From the IMG/VR virus record IMGVR_UViG_3300005663_000032: a stretch of 64,000 bases of DNA; one strand, given 5' to 3'. Below the pieces are notes generated by a model. The model did no database searches. It saw only the letters and a program-made list of their open reading frames with translations, and was not told the DNA's origin. The position numbers were made by a program, and so were the translations under genes. Origin of the DNA: an uncultured virus (IMG/VR IMGVR_UViG_3300005663_000032). Its lineage: Duplodnaviria > Heunggongvirae > Uroviricota > Caudoviricetes. Every line of letters begins with the position of its first letter. The stretch's first letter is position 1. Below are positions 15,773-64,000 of the stretch, piece after piece.

Positions 15773-16178
15773 CATGAGTTATAATGATGATTCAGTTAAT
15801 TACAAAAAAGAAGAACCCGAAGTGGAAAAAAGAATAGAACTAAGATGTTCTGCATGTGGGACAAAAAACCCAGATGCTTCATCCTTTTGTATGGAATGTG
15901 GAGTTTCGTTAGTGATTGAACATATCCTTCCTGTGCTGCAAAGGCGTACACAACTGACCCAAGGCTCATGGATGCACACACAACGAACTTCTGATAGTGG
16001 CTGGGCATTAGTATTTGTGCTGATGCTTCTCATCGCCCCAATAGCAATGTATATGGCTTCAATTGGGCCAAAATCGCCCGCCGCACTTATCGCAATCGGG
16101 ATAATTGTATTTGTGGTGCAATCAAAAGACCTCCTATCACATATTAAAGGAAACTCAAAAAATGTCAAACGCAGATGA
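15765..16178 (+). CDS. zinc-ribbon membrane protein
   Basis: CSACGTKNPDASSFCMECG plus two TM. Confidence 0.8.
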   Translation: MNSMSYNDDSVNYKKEEPEVEKRIELRCSACGTKNPDASSFCMECGVSLVIEHILPVLQRRTQLTQGSWMHTQRTSDSGWALVFVLMLLIAPIAMYMASIGPKSPAALIAIGIIVFVVQSKDLLSHIKGNSKNVKRR

Positions 16179-37800: not shown

Positions 37801-40800
37801 GATGACATGTTCTTTATCAGACCCGGAACACCCCAGACAATATTTCGAGTTGGAGGAGTTCCTACCGCGCCCATGTTTGTTTCGGCGACTGATACTTGGT
37901 ATATTATTAGGGCCGATATAACAACTAATTATGTGAAAATCTATATTGATAATGTTTTGATCAGCACAAGAATCAATACCAATCCTCTACTGAATCCATA
38001 TTTCGGTGTATATGGGTTGGATTCCAATGCTCAGATAGATTTTGTTAGAATAAGTACTCTGACCTTACCACAAATCATTACTACTGCCACCACCACCTAT
38101 TTCACCACAATCAATAATACGGTGGTAAGTGCGCTGTACTCAGATGGCAATTATTTGGGGTTGTACAATTCTCTTGAACTGATAACCCTCAACTTCACTG
38201 CCAATCCACACAACATAACAGTCATACCTGCATTAAATACACAAGTAGTAGATTATGTGTTTGCGTTGGATTATAGTCTCAATTTGAACTACCTCTACGA
38301 TAATTCTATTGGGTTTGCAGTTAGTATTAACTCATTTAATGTTTTAGACACCCAGATTTCAACTTATATGGCTGCAACCCGCAACGGCAATTATACTGCA
38401 TATGAGAACGATACATCAGTTGGTAGTGGAAATTTTGTTGCAGCAGGGACTTCTATACAAACCGCGAGAAATACCACAACTGGTTACATATTTTATTACG
38501 CTATACTTTTCCAAAACAATACCGATCAACTCTGGTTCAACACAACCTATTCGAATGCCGTATTGGTGGTTGTTGACAATCAGATTACAGTGGCTGCTTA
38601 TTCTATCGATGTGGCGGGGGGCTTGTTTTATGCAACTGTTTACACTTTGTGGGGTAATAACACCGTTCAGGTTTATGATAATAACTCTCCATTAGGTGGC
38701 ACAGTAAATGAGGGGACTTCGGTCTGGCCGTGGGCTACATCCGCAGGAACCCATAATTTCTCAATAGTGGTTAGAAACGATGGAAGCATATTTCGTTATA
38801 TCAACGCCTCTGTGACAATAGTAGATTTTTCATTTACTGTATCTGTTTCTGCATTTACCGTCTCCCAATCTAATGTATCTACATATGTGACTGGATCTAA
38901 AGATGGAACTTTTACAATCTACGAAAATAATACCGAGATTGCTACTGGATCATTTAATTCTGTCGGAACATCAATAATCACCGCAAAGAATATTAGTTAT
39001 GATATATTGGTAAATTATGCAATTAGCTTTGTGAACGCATCAGACACGGTCTGGTTTAACACTACTTATTCAAATCCTCCACTGCCCGATTTAACAAACC
39101 AATTACTGGTGGCATCTTACTCAATAGATGCAGATGCTGGCTTATTCTACACCACAATAGAGACATTATGGGCTAATAACACCGTTCAGGTTTATGATAA
39201 TAATTCTCCACTGGGTACTTCAGTATCAGAAGGCACCTCAGTCTGGTCATTCACAACATCTGGAGGAACTCATAATTTCAGTACAGTGGTTAGAAATGGG
39301 GCAAATGTATTTCGCTATCTCAATGTTTCAATAACCATTGTTGATTTCTCATTCACCGTATCTGTTTCTGCATTTACAGTATCCGCTTCTAATGTATCTA
39401 CATATGTAACCGGATCTAAAGATGGAACTTATACAGTTTATGAAAATAATACCGAGATTGCTACGGGTGCATTTAATTCAGTCGGAACATCAATAATCAC
39501 CGCAAAGAATATTAATTATGATATATTGGTAAATTATGCAATCAGCTTTGTTAATGCATCAGATACAGTCTGGTTTAACACTACTTATTCAAATCCTCCA
39601 CTGCCCGATTTAACAAACCAATTACTGGTGGCATCTTACTCAATAGACGCAGATGCAGGCTTGTTTTATACCACAATAGAGACATTATGGGCAAATAACA
39701 CTGTTCAAGTTTATGATAATGATGTATCTCTAGGTACTGCTATATCTGAGGGAACTAGTGTTTGGAGTTTCACCACATCGATTGGTCAACATAATTTTTC
39801 AATATTCGTTAGAAATGATGGAACGTTGTTCAGACAACTGAACACCTCGATTACTCTAGCTAGTGTTGATTTTTCAGTCTCTATAAATACATTTAGTGTT
39901 TCTGAGGTAATTATTTCTACATTTATCACTTCAACTAAAAATGGAAATTATAGTGTTTATGAAAATAACACCAAGATAGGTGATGGTAATTTTATTTCCA
40001 CAGGAACTTCTATTCAATCGAATAGAAATACTGTTGATGGTGCATTTATTTATTATGCTATCGCTTTTCAGAATGTTACTGATGTAGTATGGTTCAATAC
40101 CACCTATTCAAACACTTTAGCTGTGGTGGAAGCAGGTAATCAATTGCTAGTAGCAAGTTATTCAATCGATGCTGATGGGGGATTATTCTATGCAACAATT
40201 GAAACTTCATGGGGAAACAACACCGTTCAGGTCTATGATAATAACTCTCCACTGGGTACTTCAGTATCGGAAGGCACCTCAGTATGGTCATTCACAACCT
40301 CCGCAGGAACCCATAATTTCAGTACTGTGGTTAGAAATGGTGCAGATATATTTCGCTATCTTAACGCCTCTGTGACAATAGTAGATTTTTCATTCACAGT
40401 CTCAATATCTGCATTTACGGTATCTAGTACGAACATCTCTACATATGTAACCGGATCTAAAGATGGAACTTATACTGTCTACGAAAATAATACCCAAATA
40501 GATACAGGCTCTTTTAATTCAGTCGGGACATCAATAATCACCGCAAAGAATATTAATTATGATATATTGGTAAATTATGCAATTAGCTTTGTGAACGCAT
40601 CAGATACAGTCTGGTTTAACACCACCTATTCAAATGCTCCACTACCTGATCTAACAAATCAATTATTGGTAGCAAGTTACTCAATAGATGCAGATGGTGG
40701 ATTATTTTATACCACAATAGAGACTTTATGGGGCAATAATACTGTTCAGGTTTATGATAACAACTCCCCACTGGGAACTTCGGTAAATGAAGGAACTTCA

Positions 40801-43800
40801 GTATGGTCATTCACAACATCTGGTGGTACGCATAACTTCAGCACAGTGGTTAGAAATGGGGCAAACATATTTCGATATCTCAATGTTTCTGTGACAATAG
40901 TCGATTTCTCATTCACCGTATCCGTCTCTACCTTTACAGTATCTGCTTCTAATGTATCTACATATGTAACCGGATCTAAAGATGGAACTTATACAGTTTA
41001 TGAAAATAATACCGAAATAGATACGGGTGCATTTAATTCAACCGGAACATCAATAATCACTTCGAAAAATATTAATTACGATATATTGGTAAACTATGCA
41101 ATCAAATTTGTTAATGCATCAGATACAGTCTGGTTCACTGCCACCTATTCAAATGCTCCACTACCTGATCTAACCAATCAATTACTGGTGGCATCTTACT
41201 CAATAGACGCAGATGCAGGCTTGTTTTATACCACAATAGAGACTTTATGGGCAAACAATACTGTTCAGGCGTATGATAATGATAATTCACTAGGTATTGC
41301 CATCAATGAAGGTACTAGTGTTTGGAGTTTCACAACTTCTGTAGGACAACATAATTTTTCAATATTCGTTAGAAATGATGGAACGCTGTTCAGACAACTG
41401 AACACCTCGATTACTTTAGCAAGTGTTGATTTCTCAGTCTCTATAAATACATTTAGTGTTTCTGAGGTAATTATTTCTACATTTATCACTTCAACTAAAA
41501 ATGGAAACTATAGTATTTATGAAAATAACACCAAGATAGGTGATGGTAACTTTGTTTTCACAGGAACATCTATTCAATCCAATAGAAATACTGTTGATGG
41601 TGCATTTATTTATTATGCCATAGCTTTTCAGAATGTTACCGATGTGGTTTGGTTCAATACCACCTATTCAAACACTTTAGCTGTGGTGGAAGTGGGTAAT
41701 CAATTGCTAGTTGCAAGTTATTCAATCGATGCTGATGGGGGATTATTTTACACGACAATAGAAACCTTATGGACAAATAATACAGTTCAGGTTTATGATA
41801 ATAACTCTCCACTGGGTACTTCAGTAAATGAGGGAACTTCAGTCTGGTCATTCACAACATCTGGTGGCACACATAATTTCAGTACAGTGGTTCGTAATGA
41901 TGCAACAATATTCCGCTATCTCAACGTATCTGTAACCATTGTTGATTTTACCTTCACTGTCTCAGTCTCAGCATTCACTGTCTCAGCTTCTAATATATCC
42001 ACATATATAACTGGCTCTAAAGATGGAACTTATACTGTTTACGAAAATAATACCGAAATTGATACAGGATCATTTAATTCAGTCGGGACATCAATAATAA
42101 CTGCAAAAAATATTAATTACGATATATTGGTAAACTATGCAATCAGGTTTGTTAATGCATCAGATACAGTCTGGTTCACCACCACCTATTCAAATCCCCC
42201 ACTGGCCGACTTAACAAACCAATTATTGGTAGCAAGTTACTCAATAGATGCAGATGCCGGGTTATTCTATACTACAATAGAAACCTTATGGGCAAACAAC
42301 ACCGTTCAGGTTTATGATAACACTTCTCCACTGGGGAATACTGTTTCAGAAGGAACTGCAGTTTGGTCATTTCCTACTTCAGCAGGCACTCATAATTTCA
42401 GTACTGTAATCAGAAACGGCGCAACAATATTCCGATACCTAAACGTATCTGTGACAATAGTTGATTTTATTTTCACCGTAGCGGTCTCTGCATACACCGT
42501 ATCACAATCCAACGTTTCTACATATGTAACTGGCACTAAAGATGGAACTTATACGGTCTACGAAAACGATACCCAAATCACCACGGGCTCACTATTTGCT
42601 GTCGGGACATCAATAATAACCGCAAAAAATCAATCATTAGGAATACTGGTAAATTATGCAATTAAATTTGTAAATGCTTCTGACACAATATGGTTTAATG
42701 CCACATATTCTGGCGATCCTATCGTCGAATTTTCAATAAACATATGGGCGTTTGAAGTAAGTGCAACACAAGTAACCACTTCGGTTTCTTCATCGAAAGG
42801 ATTCGCATGGGCTGTCTATGAGAATAATACTGGAATTGATAGTGGCTTGGGATCTGACGGATACACAATCCAAACAGATAAGAATTTGGCACATGGGGTT
42901 ACAATTAATTATGCAATAATCTTTGCAAATGATAGTACTTCAATATGGTTTAATACCACATATTCTAATGCTCCTGAGGAAGTAAATCAACTCCTAGTTG
43001 CAAGTTATTCTATAGATGCAGATGGTGGATTATTTTATACCACAATAGAAACTTTATGGACAAATAATACAATTCAGGTTTATGACAACAATGCTCCATT
43101 AGGCACAGCAGTATCCGAAGGAACCTCAGTTTGGTCATTCGCAACATCTGGCGGAACTCATAATTTCAGTACTGTAATCAGAAACGGTGCAACAATATTT
43201 CGATACCTAAACGTATCTATAACAATAGTTGATTTTACTTTCACCGTATCAGTTTCTGCCTTTACAATATCTAATTCTAATGTGTCTACTTATATAACCG
43301 GCTCTAAAGATGGAACTTACACAGTTTACGAAAATAATACCCAAATAGATACAGGTTCATTTAATTCAGTCGGGACATCAATAATAACAGCAAAGAATAT
43401 TAATTATGACATATTAGTAAACTATGCAATTAAATTTGTAAATGGCTCTGATACCGTCTGGTTCAACGCCACCTATTCAAACGCCCCACTGCCGGATATA
43501 GCAAATCAGCTCCTAGTTGCAAGTTATTCTATCGATGCTGATGGGGGATTATTTTACACGACAATAGAAACCTTATGGACAAATAATACAGTTCAGGTTT
43601 ATGACAACAATTCTCCATTAGGCACCGCTGTTGCTGAAGGATCTTCGGCTTGGTCTTTTATTCTCAGTTTGGGTACACATAATTTCAGTGTCGTTATACG
43701 AAATGCTGGCCTTTTATTTCGATATCTCAACGTTTCATTCACTATTGCGGATTCTGGAATTACTAGTGGAGATATGTCAGTAAGGCTTCAAAACGGAGTG

Positions 43801-45810
43801 GGCCAAAATGTTCCATTCGAAACATTTGCCACATATTACAGATTCAACGGCACAAATGAATACGCAGGGATGGCCAACAACCTTCTTCATTTTGCGAATG
43901 TTGGATTTACTGTAAATTTATATGTAAATGATTCTTTTGGTCAAGAAATGGCAAACGCCACAGTTTCATATAGCCAATTTTTATTTATCACTGTAAACTC
44001 GTATGAGTTTCTTTTCACCAATCATGTGAATCAATCCCTTCTGGTGCAACTAAAACTTCCTATACAAGCATGGGGCGACGCTGTTGGTTATTGGGTTGGA
44101 GAAGACACATTTAGAACAATACGTCTATTTTCTGGCACTTATGATATAAGAGTTCTGGCTGCTGATGGAATAACAGTACTTCAAACATTTACTCTTGCCG
44201 CAACATCTGATCAAGTAATTACTCTTGATGAAGGCGATGATTTATTTCTATATGGGTATACATGGGACTCTGACAATGGAAATGTGACAATCACATTGGT
44301 TACTAATTATGGAGATTCAAGAGTGGAGGTATGGGACAATTCTAATCTGGTAGGAACATTTAATGAGAATGGAACTATATCATGGGAGATTGCAACAGGA
44401 GTAAATGTCTCTCAAGTAGTATTCTTTATCAACCGAAATATAACAAAATATGGCGGGGCAGATGAACAGCAACTATTTCGTGGATTTTCATATGCAATTT
44501 CACTGGATGATTTTGGAATTTTAATATCTGATGTTTCATGGCTCGAGACAAATGATCAATTCACCATAACTGTGGTGTCTAATCAATTATACTCATTAGT
44601 AACCATATGGCATGATGGGGTGATAAATGAGACTGGTTCCTTGGAAAACGTATTCGTGATCGACAAGGACACAATAACTGCCGGAAATCATAACGTAACT
44701 TTACTTGTCACATGGATTAACGGCACGGGGTATTACTTCAGCAACTGGTTTGTGTTATCTTACTGGACTGCATCATATTACACAGTATCAATTGATGTCA
44801 TTCCATCCGCCCCCGGTCTTAAAATAAAGACAAATGAGATAGATATGGCAAGTTTCAATGTTTATATTGATGGCGAATTAGTTAACAAAGAAGTACCCGA
44901 TCCATTCAAAGAACAGACTACTGAACAGATCAATACAACATTGATTGCCGATGGGACTTTATGGGTGAGAAATACTCAATGGAATCACACTCTAACTATC
45001 AACGATAAATGGGATGTGTTGGTTTACGAAACTGTCGTCGATTTCAGAGATTTCACCTATCGTGTATATGAACTGCCGCTGGCAAAAATAACACTCCGCA
45101 CCGAAACAGAACAAGCAATAGTTCTAGAGCTATATTATTGGGATCAAAGCACCACTAATTCTTACATACTAGGTCCAGAATTATATTTATCGCCAGGCTT
45201 GGAGGGTCAAACAGCATGGATTGTTTCAGGAGTTTATTCTGCTCTGATGTATGATGTCGAAACTCGGACAACAGTTATCTTGGATAAAAAAGTAACAAAA
45301 CGAATCACGGTGGAAAACACTGGTTTAGAATTGGATACACAAGATCTTCTGATAGGACAAGGTGAATTTGAATTAGCAGTTGAGGAACTTGCAGAAGGCT
45401 CATATGCGATTCGTTTAGAACCTGCTGCAGTTGTTAATTTTGCGGATATAAATATTCCTTCAGAAACAGAATTCGCGGAACGAATAGTCACATGGTTGGG
45501 AGATAACTATTTTTATATTGCAGGTATCGTATTACTGCTGGTTGCCGGATGGTATGCACTGAAAAAAGGCACTGAAAAATTATCGAATATTGATTCAGAA
45601 AAACTACAGACAGATATTACCAAACGCCTCAAACGCGATAAAAAACCAAAACCCAATAATAAAATCAAGCCTCGGAGTGAACGCAATAAAAAACCAAAAC
45701 CCAATAATAAAATCAAGCCTCGGAGTGAACGCAATAAAAAACCAAAACCTGAGAAAAAACCACCGCCCCTTTGGGCAGGATTTTCTAACAAAAACAACAA
45801 TGCCAAATAG
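34837..45810 (+). CDS. 3657-aa giant surface protein: 6 NHL repeats, lectin-like domains, ~10 tandem ~170-aa units, C-terminal TM
   Basis: GEF..P.GIAVDSSG.VYV.D..N.RIQKF x6; NQLLVASYSID repeats; many N-x-S/T sequons; TM plus basic tail. Confidence 0.93.
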   Translation: MRCLHMHKKTLYTAFTLILLFGSLLTGLDDNPLGIDDSIQTTKPIDNTLTDQTFDESIAYGPDRQYNTSTSSWNTVTPEKQLISGAWVDPKASSINLNSLPDPTVQYQGESVRVDYQAKNNTVKALDYAYKEDFDFLFEWGSIGTGDGEFDYPYGIAVDSSGDVYVVDQNNDRVQKFTSTGTFILEWGVSGSGEGQFNDPFRIAVDSSGDVYVVDLNNHRIQKFNGTGTFILEWGVAGSGEGQFNNPFGIAVDSSGDVYVADRLNHRIQKFNGTGTFILEWGVEGTGDGELSYPSGLAVDSSGNVYVADTENHRIQKFNGTGTFILKWGVSGTGDGEFNIPSGIAVDSSGNIYVSDLNNDRIQKFTNTGTFILKWGVAGTGDGEFNDPFGIAVDSSGNVYVSDTANHRVQKFGFITTQIDPIGLLPISDDSNNLVVDNVRSAGTIFEKVYLGFTYYDMISPTQLGIDFSWITKKSAIFTSVFNSEQLTLDISDLAVYSSDELKIDLIFTYSNGIGFVIEIGIFDTGLNQYVFSTTTSAVSYFDFDNSIIKIDYMWAESQEITSNIRSNLKYSSPTQTLHTLDIDVYDYRIPLALYTDWNLTSIVPTASFSWDSINNRYLITNTIPTTYSITFIDGQGWGIGNPYNSTISPVIDVTNDFLSCSSFDCGNVTADMSSTTENENAVFTANTTIVSDGGVSLRMEDTDGAGSEGLNMAVDERGTYTITFDTYVELGHTWGNIRFYYRDSDTSWAYYQVDDIVTDRWQKHIVNNFTLSGDESTNNRNLLISFVSGQGVAFIDNIHIWAVKPVVTITDINKYQFSVPSTVLDGYISPTINNHPFIITLKTHEPESTLETWNEISDATGYLSFEYNNPLVEQGYVLEFNSTLYNVTISEYYFTPILGSHYINNENYDVDFDDVTVGELINLDADTESLFDGTLQVTSTGSAYWAYYSAATLSSAYSVSTRIKHIGGVDTYIGLSFFDIPNSASASDDMFFIRPGTPQTIFRVGGVPTAPMFVSATDTWYIIRADITTNYVKIYIDNVLISTRINTNPLLNPYFGVYGLDSNAQIDFVRISTLTLPQIITTATTTYFTTINNTVVSALYSDGNYLGLYNSLELITLNFTANPHNITVIPALNTQVVDYVFALDYSLNLNYLYDNSIGFAVSINSFNVLDTQISTYMAATRNGNYTAYENDTSVGSGNFVAAGTSIQTARNTTTGYIFYYAILFQNNTDQLWFNTTYSNAVLVVVDNQITVAAYSIDVAGGLFYATVYTLWGNNTVQVYDNNSPLGGTVNEGTSVWPWATSAGTHNFSIVVRNDGSIFRYINASVTIVDFSFTVSVSAFTVSQSNVSTYVTGSKDGTFTIYENNTEIATGSFNSVGTSIITAKNISYDILVNYAISFVNASDTVWFNTTYSNPPLPDLTNQLLVASYSIDADAGLFYTTIETLWANNTVQVYDNNSPLGTSVSEGTSVWSFTTSGGTHNFSTVVRNGANVFRYLNVSITIVDFSFTVSVSAFTVSASNVSTYVTGSKDGTYTVYENNTEIATGAFNSVGTSIITAKNINYDILVNYAISFVNASDTVWFNTTYSNPPLPDLTNQLLVASYSIDADAGLFYTTIETLWANNTVQVYDNDVSLGTAISEGTSVWSFTTSIGQHNFSIFVRNDGTLFRQLNTSITLASVDFSVSINTFSVSEVIISTFITSTKNGNYSVYENNTKIGDGNFISTGTSIQSNRNTVDGAFIYYAIAFQNVTDVVWFNTTYSNTLAVVEAGNQLLVASYSIDADGGLFYATIETSWGNNTVQVYDNNSPLGTSVSEGTSVWSFTTSAGTHNFSTVVRNGADIFRYLNASVTIVDFSFTVSISAFTVSSTNISTYVTGSKDGTYTVYENNTQIDTGSFNSVGTSIITAKNINYDILVNYAISFVNASDTVWFNTTYSNAPLPDLTNQLLVASYSIDADGGLFYTTIETLWGNNTVQVYDNNSPLGTSVNEGTSVWSFTTSGGTHNFSTVVRNGANIFRYLNVSVTIVDFSFTVSVSTFTVSASNVSTYVTGSKDGTYTVYENNTEIDTGAFNSTGTSIITSKNINYDILVNYAIKFVNASDTVWFTATYSNAPLPDLTNQLLVASYSIDADAGLFYTTIETLWANNTVQAYDNDNSLGIAINEGTSVWSFTTSVGQHNFSIFVRNDGTLFRQLNTSITLASVDFSVSINTFSVSEVIISTFITSTKNGNYSIYENNTKIGDGNFVFTGTSIQSNRNTVDGAFIYYAIAFQNVTDVVWFNTTYSNTLAVVEVGNQLLVASYSIDADGGLFYTTIETLWTNNTVQVYDNNSPLGTSVNEGTSVWSFTTSGGTHNFSTVVRNDATIFRYLNVSVTIVDFTFTVSVSAFTVSASNISTYITGSKDGTYTVYENNTEIDTGSFNSVGTSIITAKNINYDILVNYAIRFVNASDTVWFTTTYSNPPLADLTNQLLVASYSIDADAGLFYTTIETLWANNTVQVYDNTSPLGNTVSEGTAVWSFPTSAGTHNFSTVIRNGATIFRYLNVSVTIVDFIFTVAVSAYTVSQSNVSTYVTGTKDGTYTVYENDTQITTGSLFAVGTSIITAKNQSLGILVNYAIKFVNASDTIWFNATYSGDPIVEFSINIWAFEVSATQVTTSVSSSKGFAWAVYENNTGIDSGLGSDGYTIQTDKNLAHGVTINYAIIFANDSTSIWFNTTYSNAPEEVNQLLVASYSIDADGGLFYTTIETLWTNNTIQVYDNNAPLGTAVSEGTSVWSFATSGGTHNFSTVIRNGATIFRYLNVSITIVDFTFTVSVSAFTISNSNVSTYITGSKDGTYTVYENNTQIDTGSFNSVGTSIITAKNINYDILVNYAIKFVNGSDTVWFNATYSNAPLPDIANQLLVASYSIDADGGLFYTTIETLWTNNTVQVYDNNSPLGTAVAEGSSAWSFILSLGTHNFSVVIRNAGLLFRYLNVSFTIADSGITSGDMSVRLQNGVGQNVPFETFATYYRFNGTNEYAGMANNLLHFANVGFTVNLYVNDSFGQEMANATVSYSQFLFITVNSYEFLFTNHVNQSLLVQLKLPIQAWGDAVGYWVGEDTFRTIRLFSGTYDIRVLAADGITVLQTFTLAATSDQVITLDEGDDLFLYGYTWDSDNGNVTITLVTNYGDSRVEVWDNSNLVGTFNENGTISWEIATGVNVSQVVFFINRNITKYGGADEQQLFRGFSYAISLDDFGILISDVSWLETNDQFTITVVSNQLYSLVTIWHDGVINETGSLENVFVIDKDTITAGNHNVTLLVTWINGTGYYFSNWFVLSYWTASYYTVSIDVIPSAPGLKIKTNEIDMASFNVYIDGELVNKEVPDPFKEQTTEQINTTLIADGTLWVRNTQWNHTLTINDKWDVLVYETVVDFRDFTYRVYELPLAKITLRTETEQAIVLELYYWDQSTTNSYILGPELYLSPGLEGQTAWIVSGVYSALMYDVETRTTVILDKKVTKRITVENTGLELDTQDLLIGQGEFELAVEELAEGSYAIRLEPAAVVNFADINIPSETEFAERIVTWLGDNYFYIAGIVLLLVAGWYALKKGTEKLSNIDSEKLQTDITKRLKRDKKPKPNNKIKPRSERNKKPKPNNKIKPRSERNKKPKPEKKPPPLWAGFSNKNNNAK
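35245..36072 (+). repeat. six near-identical 141-bp repeats encoding an NHL beta-propeller
   Basis: Recurrent gattcttcggga...tcagaaatt at a 47-aa period. Confidence 0.9.
38310..43750 (+). repeat. intragenic array of ~520-bp units (10 A-type and 11 B-type domains)
   Basis: Counted from the translation; 39721-40140 recurs at 41281-41700. Confidence 0.85.
45638..45749 (+). repeat. perfect 48-bp tandem repeat x2.3 (KKPKPNNKIKPRSERN)
   Basis: Units start at 45638, 45686, 45734. Confidence 0.95.
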
Positions 45811-56426: not shown

Positions 56427-57248
56427 ATGAACTACAAACTTCTAATTATACTTTGTATATTAATAATTCCAACATCTTCGAAAGGGAATGTGGAACTATT
56501 TTCTGAACAATATGTAGTCGAGGTAGGCAATGACTGGGTGACTCTAAATGTTCCAGGGGATGTATATGGTTGGCTCAATCTAACTGCTGCAATCTCTAAC
56601 ACAACTGACCAAAACGATCCAACTCATCGAAATATATATGAACGAGTGCGTCTTATGTTTGGAAGTGCTGAATGTGGCTTGGGTCGATATGGCCCATATA
56701 TTAACCATGGCGATGAATGGCCACAAGATCACGTTATTGCATCATGTACTATGAAAATTGATCATACCGACTCCTCAGGTTCAATAATTTATGAAAAATA
56801 TCCTTCTTATTACACGCATTACTTCCCTTTAGAGATTCCATTCGATACGAATATAACCCTTTCAATGGAACTAAATGGAACTCATGGATTCTTTTATATA
56901 AATAATTTTTATATGAACACTACGGTAATATATCCCGAAGAATATGTTCCTCCTCAAGAGCGACATACTCGTATTGATATCGATAGGGCGCATTATAACG
57001 TATCAAATATCTGGGTAGTTGATTATACATATGCTCCTTACCAAATTAAAACCATAGTCGAAACGACTATTGCCACTGAAACCTATACTGTGAATTCAAC
57101 AATCAGCGAAACAACCACTGAAATCAGTACCGTATTTGTTTTGGATAATAAAAATTCACCAAATGCATTACCAATTCCAACATATTTGGTGATTTTAGCA
57201 CTCCCAATCATGATTTTCATAAGGAAAAAACTGACTAAAACTGTCTAA
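56427..57248 (+). CDS. surface protein with Thr-rich linker and LPIP-TM-basic sorting signal
   Basis: Signal peptide; SPNALPIPTYLVILALPIMIFIRKK. Confidence 0.85.
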   Translation: MNYKLLIILCILIIPTSSKGNVELFSEQYVVEVGNDWVTLNVPGDVYGWLNLTAAISNTTDQNDPTHRNIYERVRLMFGSAECGLGRYGPYINHGDEWPQDHVIASCTMKIDHTDSSGSIIYEKYPSYYTHYFPLEIPFDTNITLSMELNGTHGFFYINNFYMNTTVIYPEEYVPPQERHTRIDIDRAHYNVSNIWVVDYTYAPYQIKTIVETTIATETYTVNSTISETTTEISTVFVLDNKNSPNALPIPTYLVILALPIMIFIRKKLTKTV

Positions 57249-57286
57249 AACCTTTCTAGAAGCCCTGAACTCCTTCAAAACAGCCT

Positions 57287-57310
57287 AAAACTGCATAACC
57301 TTTATATATG
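57287..57310 (+). promoter_or_regulatory. promoter of the small-ORF array (AAAACTGCATAA + TTTATATA)
   Basis: Archaeal TATA box; same 12-mer at 60668. Confidence 0.65.
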
Positions 57311-57367
57311 ATAAATGCGTATATTATTATGAGAGACTACGTTCCGTAGGCCTCAAGGAGCTCTCTA

Positions 57368-57580
57368 ATGCCAACTAACTACAAATATCAAGCAACACAA
57401 AATGTGTCTAATGCTCGAAAAACTGTTGGAACAGACAATTTAGAGGGTGCAAAGGCACAGAAAACAAAAGGAAAAAACACAAATCCAGAAACAGGTCATC
57501 GAAGCTCTTGTAACTGCCTCGATTGTCGGCGTTACTGGGCAAGGATGAAAACTCCTGAATTTATTGAAAACCATTCTTAA
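57368..57580 (+). CDS. small protein with HxxxCxCxxC motif
   Basis: AGGAG upstream; HRSSCNCLDC. Confidence 0.65.
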   Translation: MPTNYKYQATQNVSNARKTVGTDNLEGAKAQKTKGKNTNPETGHRSSCNCLDCRRYWARMKTPEFIENHS

Positions 57581-57647
57581 AACCTCTCGAAAGAGGCTAA
57601 TTAGACTCTAATAGAGACCGTCGCAAGCGAATTGCAGGAAATCAAAA

Positions 57648-58016
57648 ATGCAAAACACATATAATTTTGAAAACATCGCACATTATCTTATTAGATATCT
57701 AGCAAACCTACATTGGTTAATAGATGGTAAAACTCACAAAATCATATTTGACAAAGGAATTTCACTTGATGTTACTAATTATTTAGTAGCTCGCCCCAAA
57801 GCAATTGAGTGGGGGATTCCACACTCCTCGCAATTTAATGCGACCGATTATGGAATATGTGCATTCGAATTTATTCTTACGAATAAAGAATCAATGGATC
57901 GCTATTTTGTATTCGGATATGAGGACAAACCCCTAATCCAAGAGCTGCCTATTGTGTCTGACGGTACTGACATTTCTTTACCGATGCTTATAGATGCATT
58001 AATGGCAACCAAATAA
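57648..58016 (+). CDS. hypothetical protein (repeat-flanked)
   Basis: Exactly fills the space between repeat copies. Confidence 0.7.
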   Translation: MQNTYNFENIAHYLIRYLANLHWLIDGKTHKIIFDKGISLDVTNYLVARPKAIEWGIPHSSQFNATDYGICAFEFILTNKESMDRYFVFGYEDKPLIQELPIVSDGTDISLPMLIDALMATK

Positions 58017-58042
58017 AACATCTGCCCGAAAGGGCCTAATTC

Positions 58043-58258
58043 ATGTCTATACAAAAAGAACTAACACTTGAAGAACTTTTAGATAAAATCTATCCTCTTG
58101 AGGAATGGATTATTATTATAGATGAAATGCCAGTACCTGATGAGCACAAATACGTTTACTCTCTTGGAGTAAAATCAATCGCTGAATCAGGCCAAGAACT
58201 CACTGTAAAACGAGTTCAACACTTAATAGAAAATCAGATTAATTTTATATATACCTAA
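58043..58258 (+). CDS. hypothetical protein (repeat-flanked)
   Basis: ATG directly after CTAATTC. Confidence 0.65.
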   Translation: MSIQKELTLEELLDKIYPLEEWIIIIDEMPVPDEHKYVYSLGVKSIAESGQELTVKRVQHLIENQINFIYT

Positions 58259-58378
58259 AATTCTTAAACCTCTCGAAAGAGACTAATTCAGCCCCAAAAG
58301 GAACCTTGCTACAATCGATCGATAAGTACTTGGTTCCTAATAAGGGCGCAAATTAAAACCTTCAGAAGAGACTGATTC

Positions 58379-58696
58379 ATGACAGACAAAATCTTTCATA
58401 TCATAGACGAATCAATCGACTATTCAATTAAAGTCGAGGTTGCAGTGGCTGATGAAATCATTCGGTTTCAAAAAACAGGTACAATAATTGCAATTCCTGG
58501 CACAATCGTGGGGGCTCGCACTGACTGGGCTCCACCAATTATTAATCACTTTATAATGAGTGCCATTCTTGGACACCAATACGATGATGTGATTGATTAT
58601 GATAGTATATTATACAATCCATCATGTCCCAATGATGAACTAAAAAATAAAACAGTTATTGGTCTATGTGATCCCTGTTGGGCTCAACTTAGCTAA
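58379..58696 (+). CDS. hypothetical protein (repeat-flanked)
   Basis: Stop just before a repeat copy. Confidence 0.65.
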   Translation: MTDKIFHIIDESIDYSIKVEVAVADEIIRFQKTGTIIAIPGTIVGARTDWAPPIINHFIMSAILGHQYDDVIDYDSILYNPSCPNDELKNKTVIGLCDPCWAQLS

Positions 58697-58746
58697 CAAC
58701 TCATGCCCGAAAAGGGCCTAATTAAGATCTGAAAACAGATCAAAAC

Positions 58747-59010
58747 ATGGACAACACAGTTGCCCCCCTAGATCTCAGAGAGATCACACTCCGAAAGGAG
58801 ATTGCACATGCACTTGAGGTGCTTATGGAGTACTATGAGCGCCAAGCGAGTTTAGAAGAACGCGATGCAGAAATTGAATTCTGCTGTGGCTTAAATGCCC
58901 GAAACCCATGTCTTTACTGTAATGATCCTGACGATGAAGGGGATTATTACCTTGTTTGGTTTCGAAACTCAAGCTGCCGCGCAGTAAGAAGGCTGTTCTA
59001 CATTCATTAA
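58747..59010 (+). CDS. Cys-rich hypothetical protein (repeat-flanked)
   Basis: CC..CxxC..C; bounded by repeats. Confidence 0.65.
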   Translation: MDNTVAPLDLREITLRKEIAHALEVLMEYYERQASLEERDAEIEFCCGLNARNPCLYCNDPDDEGDYYLVWFRNSSCRAVRRLFYIH

Positions 59011-59103
59011 CATACCCGCCCGAAAAGGGCCTAATTAGCTTACTAACAATAAGACGTAATATTTTAGAATCGTATATATTCTTAGGAGATATCAGAGACC
59101 TTA

Positions 59104-59322
59104 ATGTTAGATCCATTAGATCCACGAATTGCCGCAATGATGCTGAGAATACTTTCAGAAAAATACAACATGCCAAGCCTTCCAAATAATACTAAACTTG
59201 AAGAGTGTTGGAAAATACTAGATATTCAACGAAAAAAATATAAAATTCCAACAGAAAACTTTGATTTTGCATTCTTATTTTGCGAAGCCCAAATCGAAAG
59301 ACTCGATAAAGCTCGTAATTAA
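59104..59322 (+). CDS. hypothetical protein (repeat-flanked)
   Basis: Bounded by repeats. Confidence 0.6.
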   Translation: MLDPLDPRIAAMMLRILSEKYNMPSLPNNTKLEECWKILDIQRKKYKIPTENFDFAFLFCEAQIERLDKARN

Positions 59323-59383
59323 CTCTTGGAAGACTGCCCGAAAAGGGCCTAATTAACTTATCAAATAATAAGAATACATTCTG

Positions 59384-59514
59384 CTGTAGTTTCGTTCGTC
59401 CGTAGGTATTGATTAATCAATAGAGGCGAACAACATGGGCCTAAGTGGTCCATGGTTCTATAGACTAATTCTATAGATCTGAAATTACAGTTCCCAAAGA
59501 TAGCCCTAATGGCT
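59384..59514 (+). ncRNA. candidate multibranch structured RNA
   Basis: 10-bp closing helix with a G-U pair, three inner hairpins, one further hairpin. Confidence 0.65.
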
Positions 59515-59599
59515 GAGGAGAACAACATATTTAGTTATTTTAAATCTAACAAATTTAATCTAGTCGTTTGTGGGGTCGTAATCCATAGGAAAAAACAAA

Positions 59600-59884
59600 A
59601 TGTACCAAAACAATGCACAAAATATCAACCTATGGACTTTCGTCCAGAACAAAAGACACATTGGTAGAACAATGTGGAAGAAACAAAGAGCCGCAAAACA
59701 AAAGCAACAAAGATACACAAAAATTAATTTAGGGCTCAAAACAATCTTAAATCAATTTTTATCTATTTTTAAGAAATCATATCAAAAGATATACAACAAA
59801 GTATATCAAGCTCATTTCGATGGGCTTAGATCTCTTAAGGAGAAATTAAATTGGGTATCTCGCCTAATAGGATTAAGGAGCTAA
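59600..59884 (+). CDS. basic hypothetical protein
   Basis: TAGGAAAAAACAAAATG leader. Confidence 0.6.
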   Translation: MYQNNAQNINLWTFVQNKRHIGRTMWKKQRAAKQKQQRYTKINLGLKTILNQFLSIFKKSYQKIYNKVYQAHFDGLRSLKEKLNWVSRLIGLRS

Positions 59885-60084
59885 GGGTGATGATCTTAAT
59901 GTTAGATTACCCCGAAACTCTGAGAGGCCAACTCGAATTGGCCTGTACTACACTTGAAGAAAAAGTCGAAGATAAAAAAATATATAACAAACTCCCTACA
60001 GATGAACAAATGGCAATGATCAAATCTATTCAGGAGCTCAAACACATAATTACAAATGAAACAGAAAAATTCTTAGATGATTAA
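59851..60084 (+). CDS. hypothetical protein
   Basis: AGGAG at 59876 suggests a start near 59887. Confidence 0.55.
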   Translation: MGISPNRIKELRVMILMLDYPETLRGQLELACTTLEEKVEDKKIYNKLPTDEQMAMIKSIQELKHIITNETEKFLDD

Positions 60085-60177
60085 AGGATTAACTTCCCAC
60101 AAAACTAATATAATTAAAAACTAATTCGCTTACTAAATAAGCCGTAATATCGGGATCGTATGCTCAGGAAAAAACAA

Positions 60178-60543
60178 ATGAAAGACCTTAACGAACTAAA
60201 AGAAGCTCTGTTGAAACTTCATAGAGCCAACACCTGCCCATTATCTACCGATCCATTTGAGGGAGTAGTAAAACTCTCAGATGTGGTAGAAATCGGAGAT
60301 GATATAATACTGAATAACCAAATCATTGAATTAGACGATGAATGGTATCTCAACACCGTTGTTGCATTTAGTAAATTCAAAGACATTGCCGCAAAATATG
60401 ATGAAACTGGCAACCGAACAAGATTACTAAAAATAGCTGGTGAAAATTATCGTAGATTTGCGATTGCTCCACATTACGGGCTAGCTGTTGCGGAAGATAT
60501 CAGAAAGAAAAATGAGGAATTCCAAAACAACCCTAGACTATAG
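60178..60543 (+). CDS. hypothetical protein (repeat-led)
   Basis: CAGGAAAAAACAAATG leader favours the 60178 start. Confidence 0.65.
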   Translation: MKDLNELKEALLKLHRANTCPLSTDPFEGVVKLSDVVEIGDDIILNNQIIELDDEWYLNTVVAFSKFKDIAAKYDETGNRTRLLKIAGENYRRFAIAPHYGLAVAEDIRKKNEEFQNNPRL

Positions 60544-60711
60544 GTCTAAACGGCCTAACCTTTAAATAATATAAATAAATTATTTCTCTCGGCGAAAAAA
60601 CATACTAGATTATTCAACAATCTAATTCAACATAACTGCTCAGACAGTTATTCTGAATATGGTCAACAAAACTGCATAAATCCTCATAAATTTAACATAA
60701 GGCAGTGACTA

Positions 60712-61620
60712 TATTTCCTCTCTTAACTGAGAAGTCCGTGACTGGTGACAGTACGGCCCTCGCGAGAAGTCGTCCGGTTATGTGCGCCGGCTTATTAGGG
60801 AAAAAATAAGTGAGAAAATACAGGTAGAAACACGAAATACGAACTAGTCCTATCGATCGATCGATTTTAGTCCGTATAGGAATCCTGTCGCCCAATGAAT
60901 ATGAACAAGGTAAGGACAACCACTCATATGAGGGAAAAGAACACACTATTTACTTTAACTATAATTCGTCTCGGGGCAAACCGAGAAAACCGTAGTTGGC
61001 GACTTCTATGGGCCCGCGAAAGCGATCGCAGCGTAACGACTCAAGGGTAAAACAACATTGAGTTCAGTTCTAGACTGAAGAACGTTAATGTGCACATTAC
61101 ATACGGGAAAACAACGATTAATTCTCCATGAAGCATCAAAACTTCAACATAAATGGACGTAGTTCTGGGGGAATCTCAGAACAGAAGTGGAAAGGACGCC
61201 TTTCCGGAATCAGCGGAGATTCAAAACATTTTCTCCGTACAAAAAATAGAGGTCTTTCAAGAAGACCATGCCCCTGTGTTAATGAATGCACGGGCCACTA
61301 AATGATTCAGCCATTGACACCCTTACCATACCAATGGCAATTAAACAACTGAAACAAATAAGTTGATCTCTGCGGAGAACACACTTACGAGATATGAAGG
61401 TTGTTTGAAATAGTAACTTCGGTTATCTATTTCTACTATTGTGCTAAACTTGCACAGCCAGCCAATAGTGAGATAAACTCGATTAAGCAACAAGCAATGT
61501 CAGTATTTACATACAAGAGGACATCGAATTTACCGCTCAAAGAGTCTATTTCTTCACAAAAAGTGAGGCATTATTGAACCAAATACTTGTGAGTATTTTG
61601 CAATAATGGGCTGATAACGT
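60712..61620 (+). ncRNA. candidate large (~900 nt) structured non-coding RNA
   Basis: No + strand ORF of 60 aa or more; more than 15 hairpins incl. cUUCGg and GNRA loops; long-range helix; upstream promoter motif. Confidence 0.75.
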
Positions 61621-61631
61621 AGGCGTACGCT

Positions 61632-61859
61632 ATGAGAAGATCAGTAAAGAAATTAGATGAGTTTTATAAAGAACACAACGTGGTTGTGAACGGAGTACAA
61701 CTCGCAATAACATCAAGGCAACAGGAAATTGTAACGGCTTGCGTGGCCGAAAACGGATTCCAGTTGAAAGACATTAAAAAAGTCCGACAGATGGGTCATG
61801 GCAGTGTGGCAATCGATTTAATGATTGGCAAGACATTGTACACAGAGAACTCATCATAA
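61632..61859 (+). CDS. hypothetical protein
   Basis: 75-aa ORF directly after the structured region. Confidence 0.6.
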   Translation: MRRSVKKLDEFYKEHNVVVNGVQLAITSRQQEIVTACVAENGFQLKDIKKVRQMGHGSVAIDLMIGKTLYTENSS

Positions 61860-61955
61860 AACAATTCCATATCATAACAAACTAATTCGGTGGCCGAAAA
61901 GGCCACAGACAACTACTACGAACGTAGACACGAGTGAGCGGGCCTCACAGAATTC

Positions 61956-62270
61956 ATGACAGAATTCAACCGATTTCGCCCCTACGGGGCCCTAATTCAT
62001 ATGTGGTTCAGAAAAAGAAAAATCCAAAACAATACATATGTAGATTTAACTGATCCTGCATATCCTGTAATTCGAGTAAAAATTCCCGCAAAACAAATCG
62101 AATGGAAGTGGAAAAAGAATCGGCTTACTATTATAATCGATGGAGTTGATTATACTCCAAGTACAATAAAAAATATTCCTAATCTAAAAACACGAAATTT
62201 TATCAGAAACAAATTGCCAACTGTTATCGAATTAAACGCGATCGTTGACAGACTTTTAGCAACCCAATAA
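61956..62270 (+). CDS. hypothetical protein (repeat-flanked)
   Basis: Bounded by repeats. Confidence 0.65.
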   Translation: MTEFNRFRPYGALIHMWFRKRKIQNNTYVDLTDPAYPVIRVKIPAKQIEWKWKKNRLTIIIDGVDYTPSTIKNIPNLKTRNFIRNKLPTVIELNAIVDRLLATQ

Positions 62271-62334
62271 CAAATACACTCGAAAGAGCCTAATTAGCTT
62301 ATTAACAATAAGACCATTTGCAGGAGAAACAAAC

Positions 62335-62553
62335 ATGCCAATTGTAGACATAAATGATATTATCGGTGATGATGGCGAAGACACAATATCAATAGTGTTA
62401 GTCAGAACATTTGAATATGAAGGGCTTTCAAGAGTTCCATCAAAAATAAATTATTTTATTAATAATAAACCCGTGACTAAGAAAGAATTCAACGAGATGA
62501 ATGACGATATGAATGATCTTGCCGGAGTTCCTTCAAATGATAGCTACAAATAA
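62335..62553 (+). CDS. acidic hypothetical protein (repeat-flanked)
   Basis: CAGGAGAAACAAACATG leader. Confidence 0.65.
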   Translation: MPIVDINDIIGDDGEDTISIVLVRTFEYEGLSRVPSKINYFINNKPVTKKEFNEMNDDMNDLAGVPSNDSYK

Positions 62554-62627
62554 CAACACATGCCCGAAAAGGGCCTAATTAGCTTACTAACAATAAGACG
62601 CGCATACGCACTTGCAGGAGAAACAAA

Positions 62628-63449
62628 TTGACCGTTGAAGCAATCTCAGAACCTCTTTATAAGATCGTTCTGAAGAAATCACAAATCGAAGCAAATGGCA
62701 TCAGCCCGTTATTCAAAGGGCTTGCACTTGATAACCTTGAAATTGTTGAAGGTTATTCATATATGGATAAAGAAGAGTTTGTTCACAAATTCAGAAGATC
62801 CATTGTACACAATACAAAAACAGACGCTATTGATCCAAAAACAGGAAAAAAACCATATAAAAATCATATGTATTTTAATCCATGTCCTGACTCCGTTGGC
62901 AGATTCCAACGAAGAGATGGCAAATGGATTTATCCAAATGGACACAGAAATTGTATTGTACCACGCAGAATGTATCGAGCAGTTATTGTCACCCGTTTGG
63001 CTCCTCAGTTTCGTGAGATGCTAAACAAAGGTGAATTCAAAGGCTTGAGAGAGGCATATATTAATCCTCTTGTAAAAGTCGCAAGAATACTCCCCATGTT
63101 GATCAGACATGCAGACCCAGTTATTTATCGAAGACCAAACGACTTCACATTTATACCTGGATTTGAGGCAATTGAATGCAAGAAACATTATGGATTTAAG
63201 AAAAAAATAAATCTTACACATATGTTGAAATATGACCAAAATCTTGGAGAGGAAGAAAGAACATTCATCGATGATGAACTCAAGAAACTCCCTAAAATTT
63301 TGAAATGTGATGCAAAATGTACAAGTTTTAAAAACGTAAAATCCAGCGAGAGAAATTTTCTTAATAAATTGGCTCAGAGTCCAAACACACCAGATGCTTG
63401 GGTAGATCCAGAGATAAAAGATATTTTCTCAATCTCAATTTATTACTGA
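62628..63449 (+). CDS. hypothetical basic protein with scattered Cys/His
   Basis: TTG start after CAGGAGAAACAAA; 273 aa. Confidence 0.75.
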   Translation: MTVEAISEPLYKIVLKKSQIEANGISPLFKGLALDNLEIVEGYSYMDKEEFVHKFRRSIVHNTKTDAIDPKTGKKPYKNHMYFNPCPDSVGRFQRRDGKWIYPNGHRNCIVPRRMYRAVIVTRLAPQFREMLNKGEFKGLREAYINPLVKVARILPMLIRHADPVIYRRPNDFTFIPGFEAIECKKHYGFKKKINLTHMLKYDQNLGEEERTFIDDELKKLPKILKCDAKCTSFKNVKSSERNFLNKLAQSPNTPDAWVDPEIKDIFSISIYY

Positions 63450-63559
63450 AAAATTAGTGGATAGTCTTCTGCCACATTCAAGAGAGACATTACCTCACTT
63501 CTTACAAGAAGATTAATAACTTTTTTATATAATATAGAAATATAGAAATATAGAATTAT

Positions 63560-63682
63560 CGGGAGCTAGCTCAGTCAGGTAGAGCGCTTATAGTTCTTTT
63601 GAAATTTGATCCCTTACGGGCACACATCAGAATTTGGACATTGAGGATGTAGAGGTCATGGGTTCAAATCCCATTCTCCCGA
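63560..63682 (+). tRNA. tRNA-like gene with ~55-nt insert in a degenerate anticodon arm (identity not assignable)
   Basis: CGGGAG/CTCCCG acceptor, TAGCTCAGTCAGGTAGAGC D arm, ATGGG-TTCAAAT-CCCAT T arm. Confidence 0.75.
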
Positions 63683-63694
63683 ATATTTCACAAT

Positions 63695-63786
63695 GCTGGA
63701 GAATAATCATTCCTTCTCATTTAGATCCCGCAGGGGCACGATTTGGAATTTGGTACACTTGAAAGGTTCAATCCCTTTCTCCAGCG
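63695..63786 (+). ncRNA. tRNA-like RNA lacking the D arm, carrying the same insert
   Basis: GCTGGAG/CTCCAGC acceptor stem, AAAGG-TTCAATC-CCTTT T arm. Confidence 0.65.
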
Positions 63787-63797
63787 CTTTTTCACAA

Positions 63798-63835
63798 TGC
63801 TGTAGGATTCAAGACTTCGAACTCTTCCTATGGCA
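63798..63835 (+). ncRNA. minihelix-like hairpin with T-loop-like TTCGAAC
   Basis: TGCTGTAGGA/TCCTATGGCA stem; same TTTCACAATGCTG lead-in as the previous unit. Confidence 0.5.
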
Positions 63836-63848
63836 CTTTTTTATTTCA

Positions 63849-63934
63849 GCGAAGATGCATTTCATTCCTTTTCATTTAGATCCCGCAAGGGCACGATTTG
63901 GAATTTGGTTACAAAACTATCCCCGCATCTTCGC
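63849..63934 (+). ncRNA. stem-closed RNA with the same conserved insert
   Basis: Perfect 10-bp GCGAAGATGC/GCATCTTCGC stem; 45/47 nt identical to 63708-63754. Confidence 0.65.
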
Positions 63935-64000
63935 ATTATTTCGATCTAATTGATCCCCCTAACAGGTGGCATTAAACTATGGAAGAATTTTTAACACAAA

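Follow-up and report, generated by a model that had tools for sequence, protein, structure and literature searches.

A gene-free, hairpin-rich stretch in the small-gene cluster of an archaeal virus-like contig, tentatively read as a long structured RNA leader

RESULTS

The contig reads as a virus-like element of an archaeon

The window, the whole 64-kb stretch of DNA analysed here, opens a metagenome contig of 130,905 bp, so that the coordinates of the two coincide. Its ORFs lie nearly all on the + strand, and 19 of the 22 larger proteins belong to no PHROG family. A Pfam scan of 55 proteins, taken from the window and from a segment of the contig that reaches past the window end (L092), identified a full MCM helicase, a subtilase and two giant ORFs on the window, and a PD-(D/E)XK nuclease, RusA and DUF4326 on the contig (Table 1). 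An intein (residues about 379-825) that bears a LAGLIDADG homing-endonuclease domain interrupts the MCM gene. A tandem DNA repeat with a 141-nt unit is found at 35272-36071, in the region of the giant Laminin_G_3/NHL ORFs.

The MCM protein shares 29-49% identity with its counterparts in Thermoproteota, Thorarchaeota, Hermodarchaeota and related MAGs, and about 30% with MCMs of haloarchaeal viruses. For the 832-aa protein, 17 relatives were found on contigs (5-51 kb) from Logan, ENA, JGI and NCBI; NCBI names two of them as Promethearchaeota proteins. The central domain of the 832-aa protein (residues about 400-630) turns up again in giant open frames in 46 of 400 genomes of the phylum that contains a Thorarchaeota MAG; in these frames, which reach 10,138 aa, the domain often occurs in tandem. 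The 832-aa protein and the giant ORFs are likely to be surface or adhesion proteins common to the element and the host lineage. The tRNA at 63560 has a 62-nt stretch where the Rfam model has 13 nt and therefore carries an intron of about 50 nt; this tRNA is not detected by ARAGORN run in its bacterial setting. With its intein-bearing MCM, its protein links to Asgard archaea and its intron-bearing tRNA, this orphan contig reads as a virus-like mobile element of an archaeon, and we infer that the host is probably an Asgard archaeon.

Two tRNA-like units trail the tRNA (about 63693-63790 and about 63845-63950; the region corresponds to 6999-7390 of L092). Both show acceptor-like terminal pairing, the first also has a T-arm-like hairpin, and an internal motif (GATCCC..GGGCAC..GAATTTGG) is common to the tRNA and both units. 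An 86-aa ORF that overlaps the tRNA and the tRNA-like units has a negative codon score and is probably spurious.

Table 1. Features of the contig, the small-gene cluster and the gene-free gap (window coordinates unless stated; pair and helix probabilities are those of the folding model)
Feature	Position	Strand	Basis or remark
832-aa protein	9632-12130		adjoins the two giant ORFs
MCM helicase, full (N-terminal, OB, P-loop and lid domains)	16105-19626		Pfam
Two giant ORFs, Laminin_G_3 and NHL repeats	28746-34778 (2010 aa), 34837-45810 (3657 aa)		Pfam
Core element copies	57580-57618, 58019-58058, 58267-58303, 58700-58737, 59013-59053, 59332-59368, 62274-62312, 62557-62597		
Weaker element copies	60119-60142, 60606-60651, 61880-61906		
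Archaeal-type promoter-like box, TTTAAATA (60561-60568) and upstream purine-rich part	60548-60576	+	
Weak element copy: hairpin UAGAUU/AAUCUA, CTAATTC (60621-60627), hairpin AUAACUG/CAGUUAU	60606-60651	+	helix probabilities 0.95, 0.97
5' hairpin AUAUGGUC/GACUAUAU, inner ACUGC/GCAGU	60657-60714	+	pair probabilities 0.92, 0.86
ACUG/CAGU hairpin	60741-60752	+	partition function
Predicted multi-branch domain closed by GGCCC/GGGCC and AGAAGUCGU/GCGACUUCU	60755-61014	+	closing probabilities 0.92, 0.96
GGCCC/GGGCC	60755-60759/61010-61014	+	partition function
Long-range helix AGAAGUCG(U)/(G)CGACUUCU	60765-60773/60999-61007	+	partition function
UCUCGG/CCGAGA	60969-60986	+	partition function
CGC-GAAA-GCG hairpin (GNRA loop)	61015-61024	+	
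Best-supported structured part	61031-61338	+	helix probabilities 0.79-0.99
GUUCUG../..CAGAAC	61162-61182	+	partition function
GGAAAGG/CCUUUCC	61188-61206	+	partition function
GGUCUU/AAGACC	61251-61267	+	partition function
GCCAUUG/CAAUGGC	61310-61338	+	partition function
3' part	61359-61613	+	helix probabilities 0.70-1.00
CAUUAUUG/CAAUAAUG	61569-61608	+	partition function
75-aa ORF after the gap	61632-61859	+	no punctuation element between gap and ORF
Punctuation element CTAATTCG, then hairpin GUGGCC-GAAAA-GGCCAC	61880-61906	+	
tRNA	63560-63682		1.9 kb downstream of gap; Rfam, 39.5 bits
TnpB-type gene (OrfB_IS605 and Cas12f1-like TNB domain)	contig 66197-67564 (L092 9636-11003)		4.6 kb downstream of gap

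A non-coding gap lies within a cluster of small genes

Between a stop codon at 60543 and an ATG at 61632 lies a gene-free gap of 1088 nt (60544-61631) which is, as an earlier note on this DNA had recognized, the largest ORF-free interval of the window. By table 11 the longest ORFs within it encode 58 aa on the + strand and 84 aa on the - strand, and no frame longer than 143 aa appears in the stretch when TAG is read as Q, with table 4, or when TAA is read as Q. Codon usage, scored by a log-likelihood measure trained on 17 long ORFs of the window, gives negative values in all frames between 60480 and 61800 (best frame -0.10 to -0.22), whereas the accepted small genes near the gap score +0.11 to +0.30. 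Seven ORFs of 50-84 aa inside the gap gave no Pfam match at E<=0.01 (there was one chance-level row, E 0.071), tblastn with 222 ORF translations from the window and L092 found no protein relic in the gap, and the window holds no paralogue or second copy of it. Because contigs of three assemblies, from three DNA runs of one marine-sediment study, bridge both edges (X1, 60538-61943; X2, 59704-61573; X3, 58374-61075 and 61086-62571), the gap is not an assembly join; the three assemblies have no differing letters between 60.5 and 61.7 kb. Bacterial sigma-70 promoters (23 vs 23.6) and intrinsic terminators (8 vs 4.8±2.5) are at chance level.

The cluster that holds the gap, at 57.3-63.5 kb, consists of small + strand genes, each with a conserved element ahead of it. 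In the core order, the element comprises a GAAA(A)-looped hairpin, an invariant CTAATT, a second, variable hairpin and a leader of 1-260 nt, often with an AGGAG/AGGAA box. CTAATT is conserved in 11 of the 11 rows of the alignment (A2), and the GAAA(A) hairpin precedes CTAATT in 8 of the 11 copies and follows it in two (60119 and 61880). A profile of the element finds eight copies, all at 57580-62597, and a weak ninth at 60121; inside the gap it finds no copy, degenerate or otherwise. The weak copy at 60606-60651, whose flanking hairpins differ, is missed by this nhmmer profile. The first stem of the element shows compensating substitutions (GCCC/GGGC vs CUC/GAG), which argues that the hairpin itself is under selection, and the element may serve in RNA processing or stabilisation, or may be bound by a protein. 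CTAATT often sits in the palindrome CTAATTAG. The attC consensus has R''/R' boxes with GTTRRRY-type ends; the element lacks ends of this type and there is no integrase among the 55 proteins scanned with Pfam, so that we reject an integron-like cassette array.

The head of the gap carries an archaeal-type promoter-like box that is 83% identical over 29 nt to 57288-57316, ahead of the first gene of the cluster. Perfect matches to AACCTTTAWAWA occur in the 64 kb only at 57297, the cluster head, and at 60557, the gap head, both on the + strand, and AACCTTTAAATA at 60557 falls within the duplicated 29-nt stretch. A similar A/T box lies about 30 nt ahead of the tRNA at 63560. Archaeal promoters have a TATA-to-start spacing of about 26 nt, and on this usual spacing transcription would start near 60591, just ahead of the weak element copy at 60606. 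On the - strand nearby, only a site with two mismatches was found (61391-61402).

Downstream of the gap, the 75-aa ORF at 61632 has a codon score of +0.054 in its own frame and of -0.63 and -0.18 in the other two, and its language-model feature score of 0.97 (181 of 256 features shared) places it with small, mostly viral hypothetical-protein clusters; it is probably a real small viral protein. Since there is neither an element copy inside the gap nor a T-run, nothing separates the gap from this ORF. The element at 61880-61906 is the likely downstream limit of the RNA unit.

The gap holds more structure than expected by chance, unevenly distributed

Perfect hairpins (loops of 3-9 nt) were counted against 300 dinucleotide shuffles. 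With stems of at least 5 bp the gap has 17, against 6.24±2.43 in the shuffles, none of which reaches 17; with stems of at least 6 bp it has nine, against 1.50±1.12 (0/300). The mean over 252 equal-length windows along the 64 kb is 8.45±3.17, and the three richest windows (19 hairpins), which begin at 60251, 60501 and 61501, all overlap part of the gap. On the + strand the whole stretch also folds better than its shuffles (z about -3.8 to -4.6): z is -3.79 for 60700-61630 (20 shuffles) and -4.55 for 60591-61640 (10 shuffles), the corresponding values on the - strand being -3.39 and -5.13 with as many shuffles each. Well-determined nucleotides make up 0.70 of 60591-61640 (+), against 0.49±0.09 in 10 shuffles.

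The excess is, however, uneven. On the + strand, 61031-61325 has z -4.36 (0/200 shuffles fold as well) and 61326-61625 has z -2.76 (1/200), but the 5' third, 60735-61030, which contains the long-range helix, has only z -1.20 (28/200). For the same thirds in the same order, z on the - strand is -1.65, -2.19 and -3.99, the last with 0/200 shuffles. Only 61031-61625 is clearly structured. The earlier description of almost wall-to-wall helices is an overstatement, and the standing of the stretch as one densely structured RNA of about 900 nt is not established.

Every helix quoted in that description is present at or near its place, and most recur in the partition-function model with mean pair probabilities of 0.77-1.00. 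A possible end closure, TCCTCT/AGAGGA, is missing from the model, in which 60719-60722 pairs locally. The predicted multi-branch domain at 60755-61014 encloses hairpins at 60775-60789, 60790-60811, 60837-60877 and 60957-60997, and its closing helices are present in both the MFE and the centroid structure. Pairs in this long-range domain are predicted at high probability, yet the domain is thermodynamically unremarkable, and by our estimate several perfect 8-bp complements are expected by chance within 1 kb. The best-supported part, 61031-61338, is predicted to form hairpins at 61039-61063, 61064-61078, 61129-61146, 61162-61182, 61188-61206, 61213-61238, 61251-61267, 61270-61295 and 61310-61338, as well as a helix 61207-61212/61303-61308. 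In the 3' part, the model has hairpins at 61359-61387 (UGCG loop) and 61440-61456, an 11-bp hairpin with a c(UUCG)g loop at 61407-61433, and a domain closed by CAGCC/GGCUG (61459-61463/61609-61613) that encloses 61470-61552, 61553-61567 and 61569-61608. A further helix, predicted at 61030-61034/61627-61631 (probability 0.73), directly abuts the AUG of the 75-aa ORF.

Structure is not confined to the gap. The gap has 17.5 hairpins per kb, five ORFs of the small-gene cluster have 14-27 per kb, and the whole window has 8.3 per kb; since parts of the neighbouring cluster are equally dense, the density of the gap is partly a regional property. The hairpins in the coding parts of the cluster are mostly A/T-only, and the local z is near zero (62001-63800). 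Strong folding is found elsewhere in the cluster: 59330-59900 (571 nt) has z -5.80 on the + strand (0/100 shuffles), and z values of -4 to -6 on the same strand are found in 200-nt windows at 58601-59000, 59301-59900 and 61801-62000, the last, over the 61880 element and its leader, having z -5.13. A 260-nt leader at 59340-59599, between the element at 59336 and an ATG at 59600, is a second structured non-coding stretch. The 6.2-kb cluster has only two runs of five or more T, at 59756 and 59766.

These regional features bear on an unlikely explanation, that the gap is a functionless spacer left by decayed small accessory genes in a fast-evolving cluster, its hairpins being a by-product of the region. 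In its favour, hairpins are dense over much of the cluster, also within coding parts; the element as a whole is an orphan whose small genes evolve fast; the two strands carry a symmetric structure signal; and the number of open frames of 50-58 aa is, by our estimate, close to that predicted from composition. However, the gap contains neither a protein relic nor a degenerate punctuation element, and a spacer accounts poorly for a middle third with z -4.36 on the + strand, for stable tetraloops enriched over the 5% seen elsewhere (see below) and for a good promoter-like box directly upstream.

Strand, and RNA or DNA

Folding thermodynamics picks no strand, the whole stretch scoring alike on + and -. 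Hairpins that need G-U pairs (stems of at least 7 bp) are mildly enriched on both strands, and number 8 on the + strand against 3.45 expected (6/300 shuffles), and 13 on the - strand against 7.60 (17/300). Among the 26 hairpins with four-base loops, five on the + strand have GNRA or UNCG loops, against 0.88±0.99 in shuffles (1/300), and three of 26 do on the - strand (6/300); in the first 57 kb the share is 5% on either strand. This enrichment favours a reading at the RNA level over one at the DNA level, and the + strand only slightly. The gap has no run of five or more T on the + strand and would have four on the - strand; because about 0.8 would be expected by composition, the absence on the + strand is weak evidence. 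The case for the + strand rests on context, namely flanking genes that are all on +, the T runs and, above all, the promoter-like box.

A functional RNA transcribed from the - strand, antisense to the cluster, is the least likely of the readings that we weighed. The - strand folds at least as well (z -5.13), and 61326-61625 folds better on it (z -3.99 vs -2.76) by virtue of a long G-U-rich hairpin at about 61470-61552. Against this, the search for a nearby - strand promoter-like box yielded nothing beyond the two-mismatch site, the neighbouring genes are all on the + strand, and runs of five or more T are archaeal transcription stop signals, as which the four on the - strand would act.

Very unlikely, too, is a DNA-level element, that is, a replication origin or a packaging or recombination site, with the inverted repeats read as DNA. 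Such an element would fit the strongest signal, perfect Watson-Crick inverted repeats that are identical on both strands, as well as the equal folding of the two strands, and the contig encodes its own MCM helicase. The MCM gene is, however, 41 kb away; the gap has no iterons or repeated boxes, the sequence of each hairpin is different, and the gap is not A+T-rich relative to its surroundings (G+C 0.389 vs about 0.36). Moreover, the enrichment in GNRA/UNCG loops has no reason in DNA.

Search for relatives

No DNA homologue of the gap was found in phage records or in 448 archaeal genomes (400 + 5 + 43). Among the 400 genomes, all of one archaeal phylum, 14 gave only scattered matches of 25-72 nt (per-genome E 1.6e-4 to 9e-3), and the sets of 5 and 43 further genomes gave none. 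Two of the short matches were checked as CRISPR arrays and neither is one. IMG/VR was searched for synteny with four neighbouring or nearby proteins and with an alignment of the 832-aa protein (11 sequences), five queries in all; these returned nothing, as did tblastn of two proteins against phage records, and the two proteins that flank the gap, including the 75-aa ORF product, found only themselves among 5.8 billion protein sequences.

The hairpin-CTAATT element, which occupies only 57.5-62.6 kb of the window, served as a further bait. A 15-nt pattern of it has two chance matches in IMG/VR, with no shared genes; a 20-nt pattern finds only the source contig in a metagenome collection; and a degenerate pattern matches the 400 genomes at the level of a reversed-pattern control. 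One pair of close pattern matches (locus L130) proved to be coding and unrelated. The motif of the tRNA-like repeats is absent from IMG/VR and occurs in one of the 400 genomes, with two mismatches and inside an unrelated gene. Literature searches by topic and by contig accession found neither this element nor any large structured RNA of an archaeal virus described.

Known RNA families

A covariance-model search of 60400-61800 on both strands (Rfam 15, 4227 families) gave no match at E<=10; over 57000-63600 there was none at E<=5, and over the whole window and L092 the tRNA alone was matched. The gap therefore lies outside the described RNA families. The only group II resemblance in the gap is GUGCG at 60782. 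As far as the models reach, we reject GOLLD and ROOL (which we take to be RF01998 and RF03087), HEARO, OLE, group I and II introns and RNase P RNA, all without an Rfam match. In size the gap resembles introns, RNase P RNA and IscB/TnpB guide RNAs, and a TnpB gene is present on the same contig; this gene being 4.6 kb away, the gap is not its adjacent guide RNA. Rfam gives no match to a guide-RNA family in L092.

DISCUSSION

The gap is a non-coding stretch of about 1 kb, rich in hairpins, at the head of which stands a copy of the promoter-like box that also heads the small-gene cluster. The non-coding stretch, its excess structure, the duplicated box and the structured neighbouring leaders together suggest that it specifies a + strand RNA, most likely as the long structured leader of the next small gene. 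We favour this reading tentatively, and with somewhat less than even confidence; transcription, strand, ends and function are all deduced from sequence. In this model, the transcript would start near 60591, from the promoter box at 60548-60576, and would run on through the 75-aa ORF at 61632 into the small genes that follow, the gap being the untranslated 5' part, an extreme case of the kind of structured leader found behind the hairpin-CTAATT elements. Most likely, the stable hairpins would act in cis, guarding the ends of the message from nucleases and/or controlling access to the start codon. Like structured 5' leaders and other cis-regulatory RNAs, the gap extends from a promoter-like box to a start codon on the gene's own strand; unlike the usual ones, it is about ten times longer and matches no riboswitch or leader family, and a leader of 1 kb is very unusual for an archaeal or viral message. 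Also against a leader are the 5' third at chance, the comparable folding of the - strand, and the lack of both a homologue and variants in the three assemblies.

It is possible, though doubtful, that the gap instead specifies a new class of large structured non-coding RNA that stands alone, made from the promoter at 60557 and cut free or ended before the 75-aa ORF. During infection such an RNA might conceivably work in trans as a scaffold, a decoy or a ribozyme, by analogy with the action proposed for GOLLD and ROOL in prophages; this, too, we consider doubtful. A length of about 1 kb with many well-determined helices and enriched GNRA/UNCG loops, a promoter-like box of its own, a tRNA and two tRNA-like repeats 1.9 kb downstream and the failure to match any known family are all in keeping with a stand-alone RNA. 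However, no homologue was found, the 5' third is at chance, no processing element or T-run precedes the next ORF, and similar leaders stand beside ordinary small genes, the gap being singled out by length alone. We rank a long leader slightly above a stand-alone RNA because of the structured neighbouring leaders and because no boundary precedes the 75-aa ORF. Pairing in trans with the repeat element, raised in the earlier note, is not borne out: the best duplexes of the gap RNA with four versions of the element were equalled or beaten by 72, 27, 120 and 7 of 200 shuffles.

The likeness of the setting to that of GOLLD and ROOL, noticed earlier, stands: the contig is virus-like (MCM, RusA, PD-(D/E)XK nuclease) and has a tRNA nearby. 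Such a context is not equal to membership. GOLLD and ROOL are described as large, ornate RNAs of unknown function that often occur near tRNAs and in prophages, ROOL averaging 581 nt (PMC5737381), and, in a second report, as building RNA-only multimers seen by cryo-EM (10.1101/2024.12.08.627333). The gap resembles them as a hairpin-rich non-coding stretch, about 1 kb long, that a virus-like element carries 1.9 kb upstream of a tRNA; unlike them, it has an archaeal rather than a bacterial host and matches no covariance model at E<=10. Moreover, multistem junctions and pseudoknots are described for ROOL, whereas the gap is known from a single sequence without relatives.

The cluster as a whole recalls another system. 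The early RNA of T7 is a polycistronic transcript punctuated by hairpin processing sites, which are RNase III sites, and the small same-strand genes described here likewise form a row parted by a conserved hairpin element. To our knowledge, however, archaea generally lack RNase III, and the likeness of the element is a resemblance only, CTAATTAG being also a DNA palindrome and a possible protein-binding site.

Large structured RNAs outside the ribosome are rare, and the well-studied ones that we know of (GOLLD, ROOL, OLE and raiA) are all bacterial. It is unlikely, on present evidence, that the gap represents the first large (~1 kb) structured non-coding RNA class in an archaeal virus, apparently a virus of Asgard archaea, with a promoter of its own beside tRNA-like genes, and a functional counterpart of GOLLD and ROOL unrelated to them. 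Were it a truly conserved RNA, it would extend the biology of large RNAs to viruses of the archaea related to the ancestors of eukaryotes. As a single orphan sequence with uneven structural support, it is a lead, not a discovery. If the gap is a leader, then, with the hairpin-CUAAUU punctuation, it would point to an RNA-level organisation of a viral gene cluster in archaea. A separate observation concerns an 87-aa cysteine-rich ORF of the same cluster (58747-59010), which has a near-zero codon score and lies within the strongest-folding 200-nt windows of the region (z -4 to -6, +); here, coding sequence and RNA structure may overlap.
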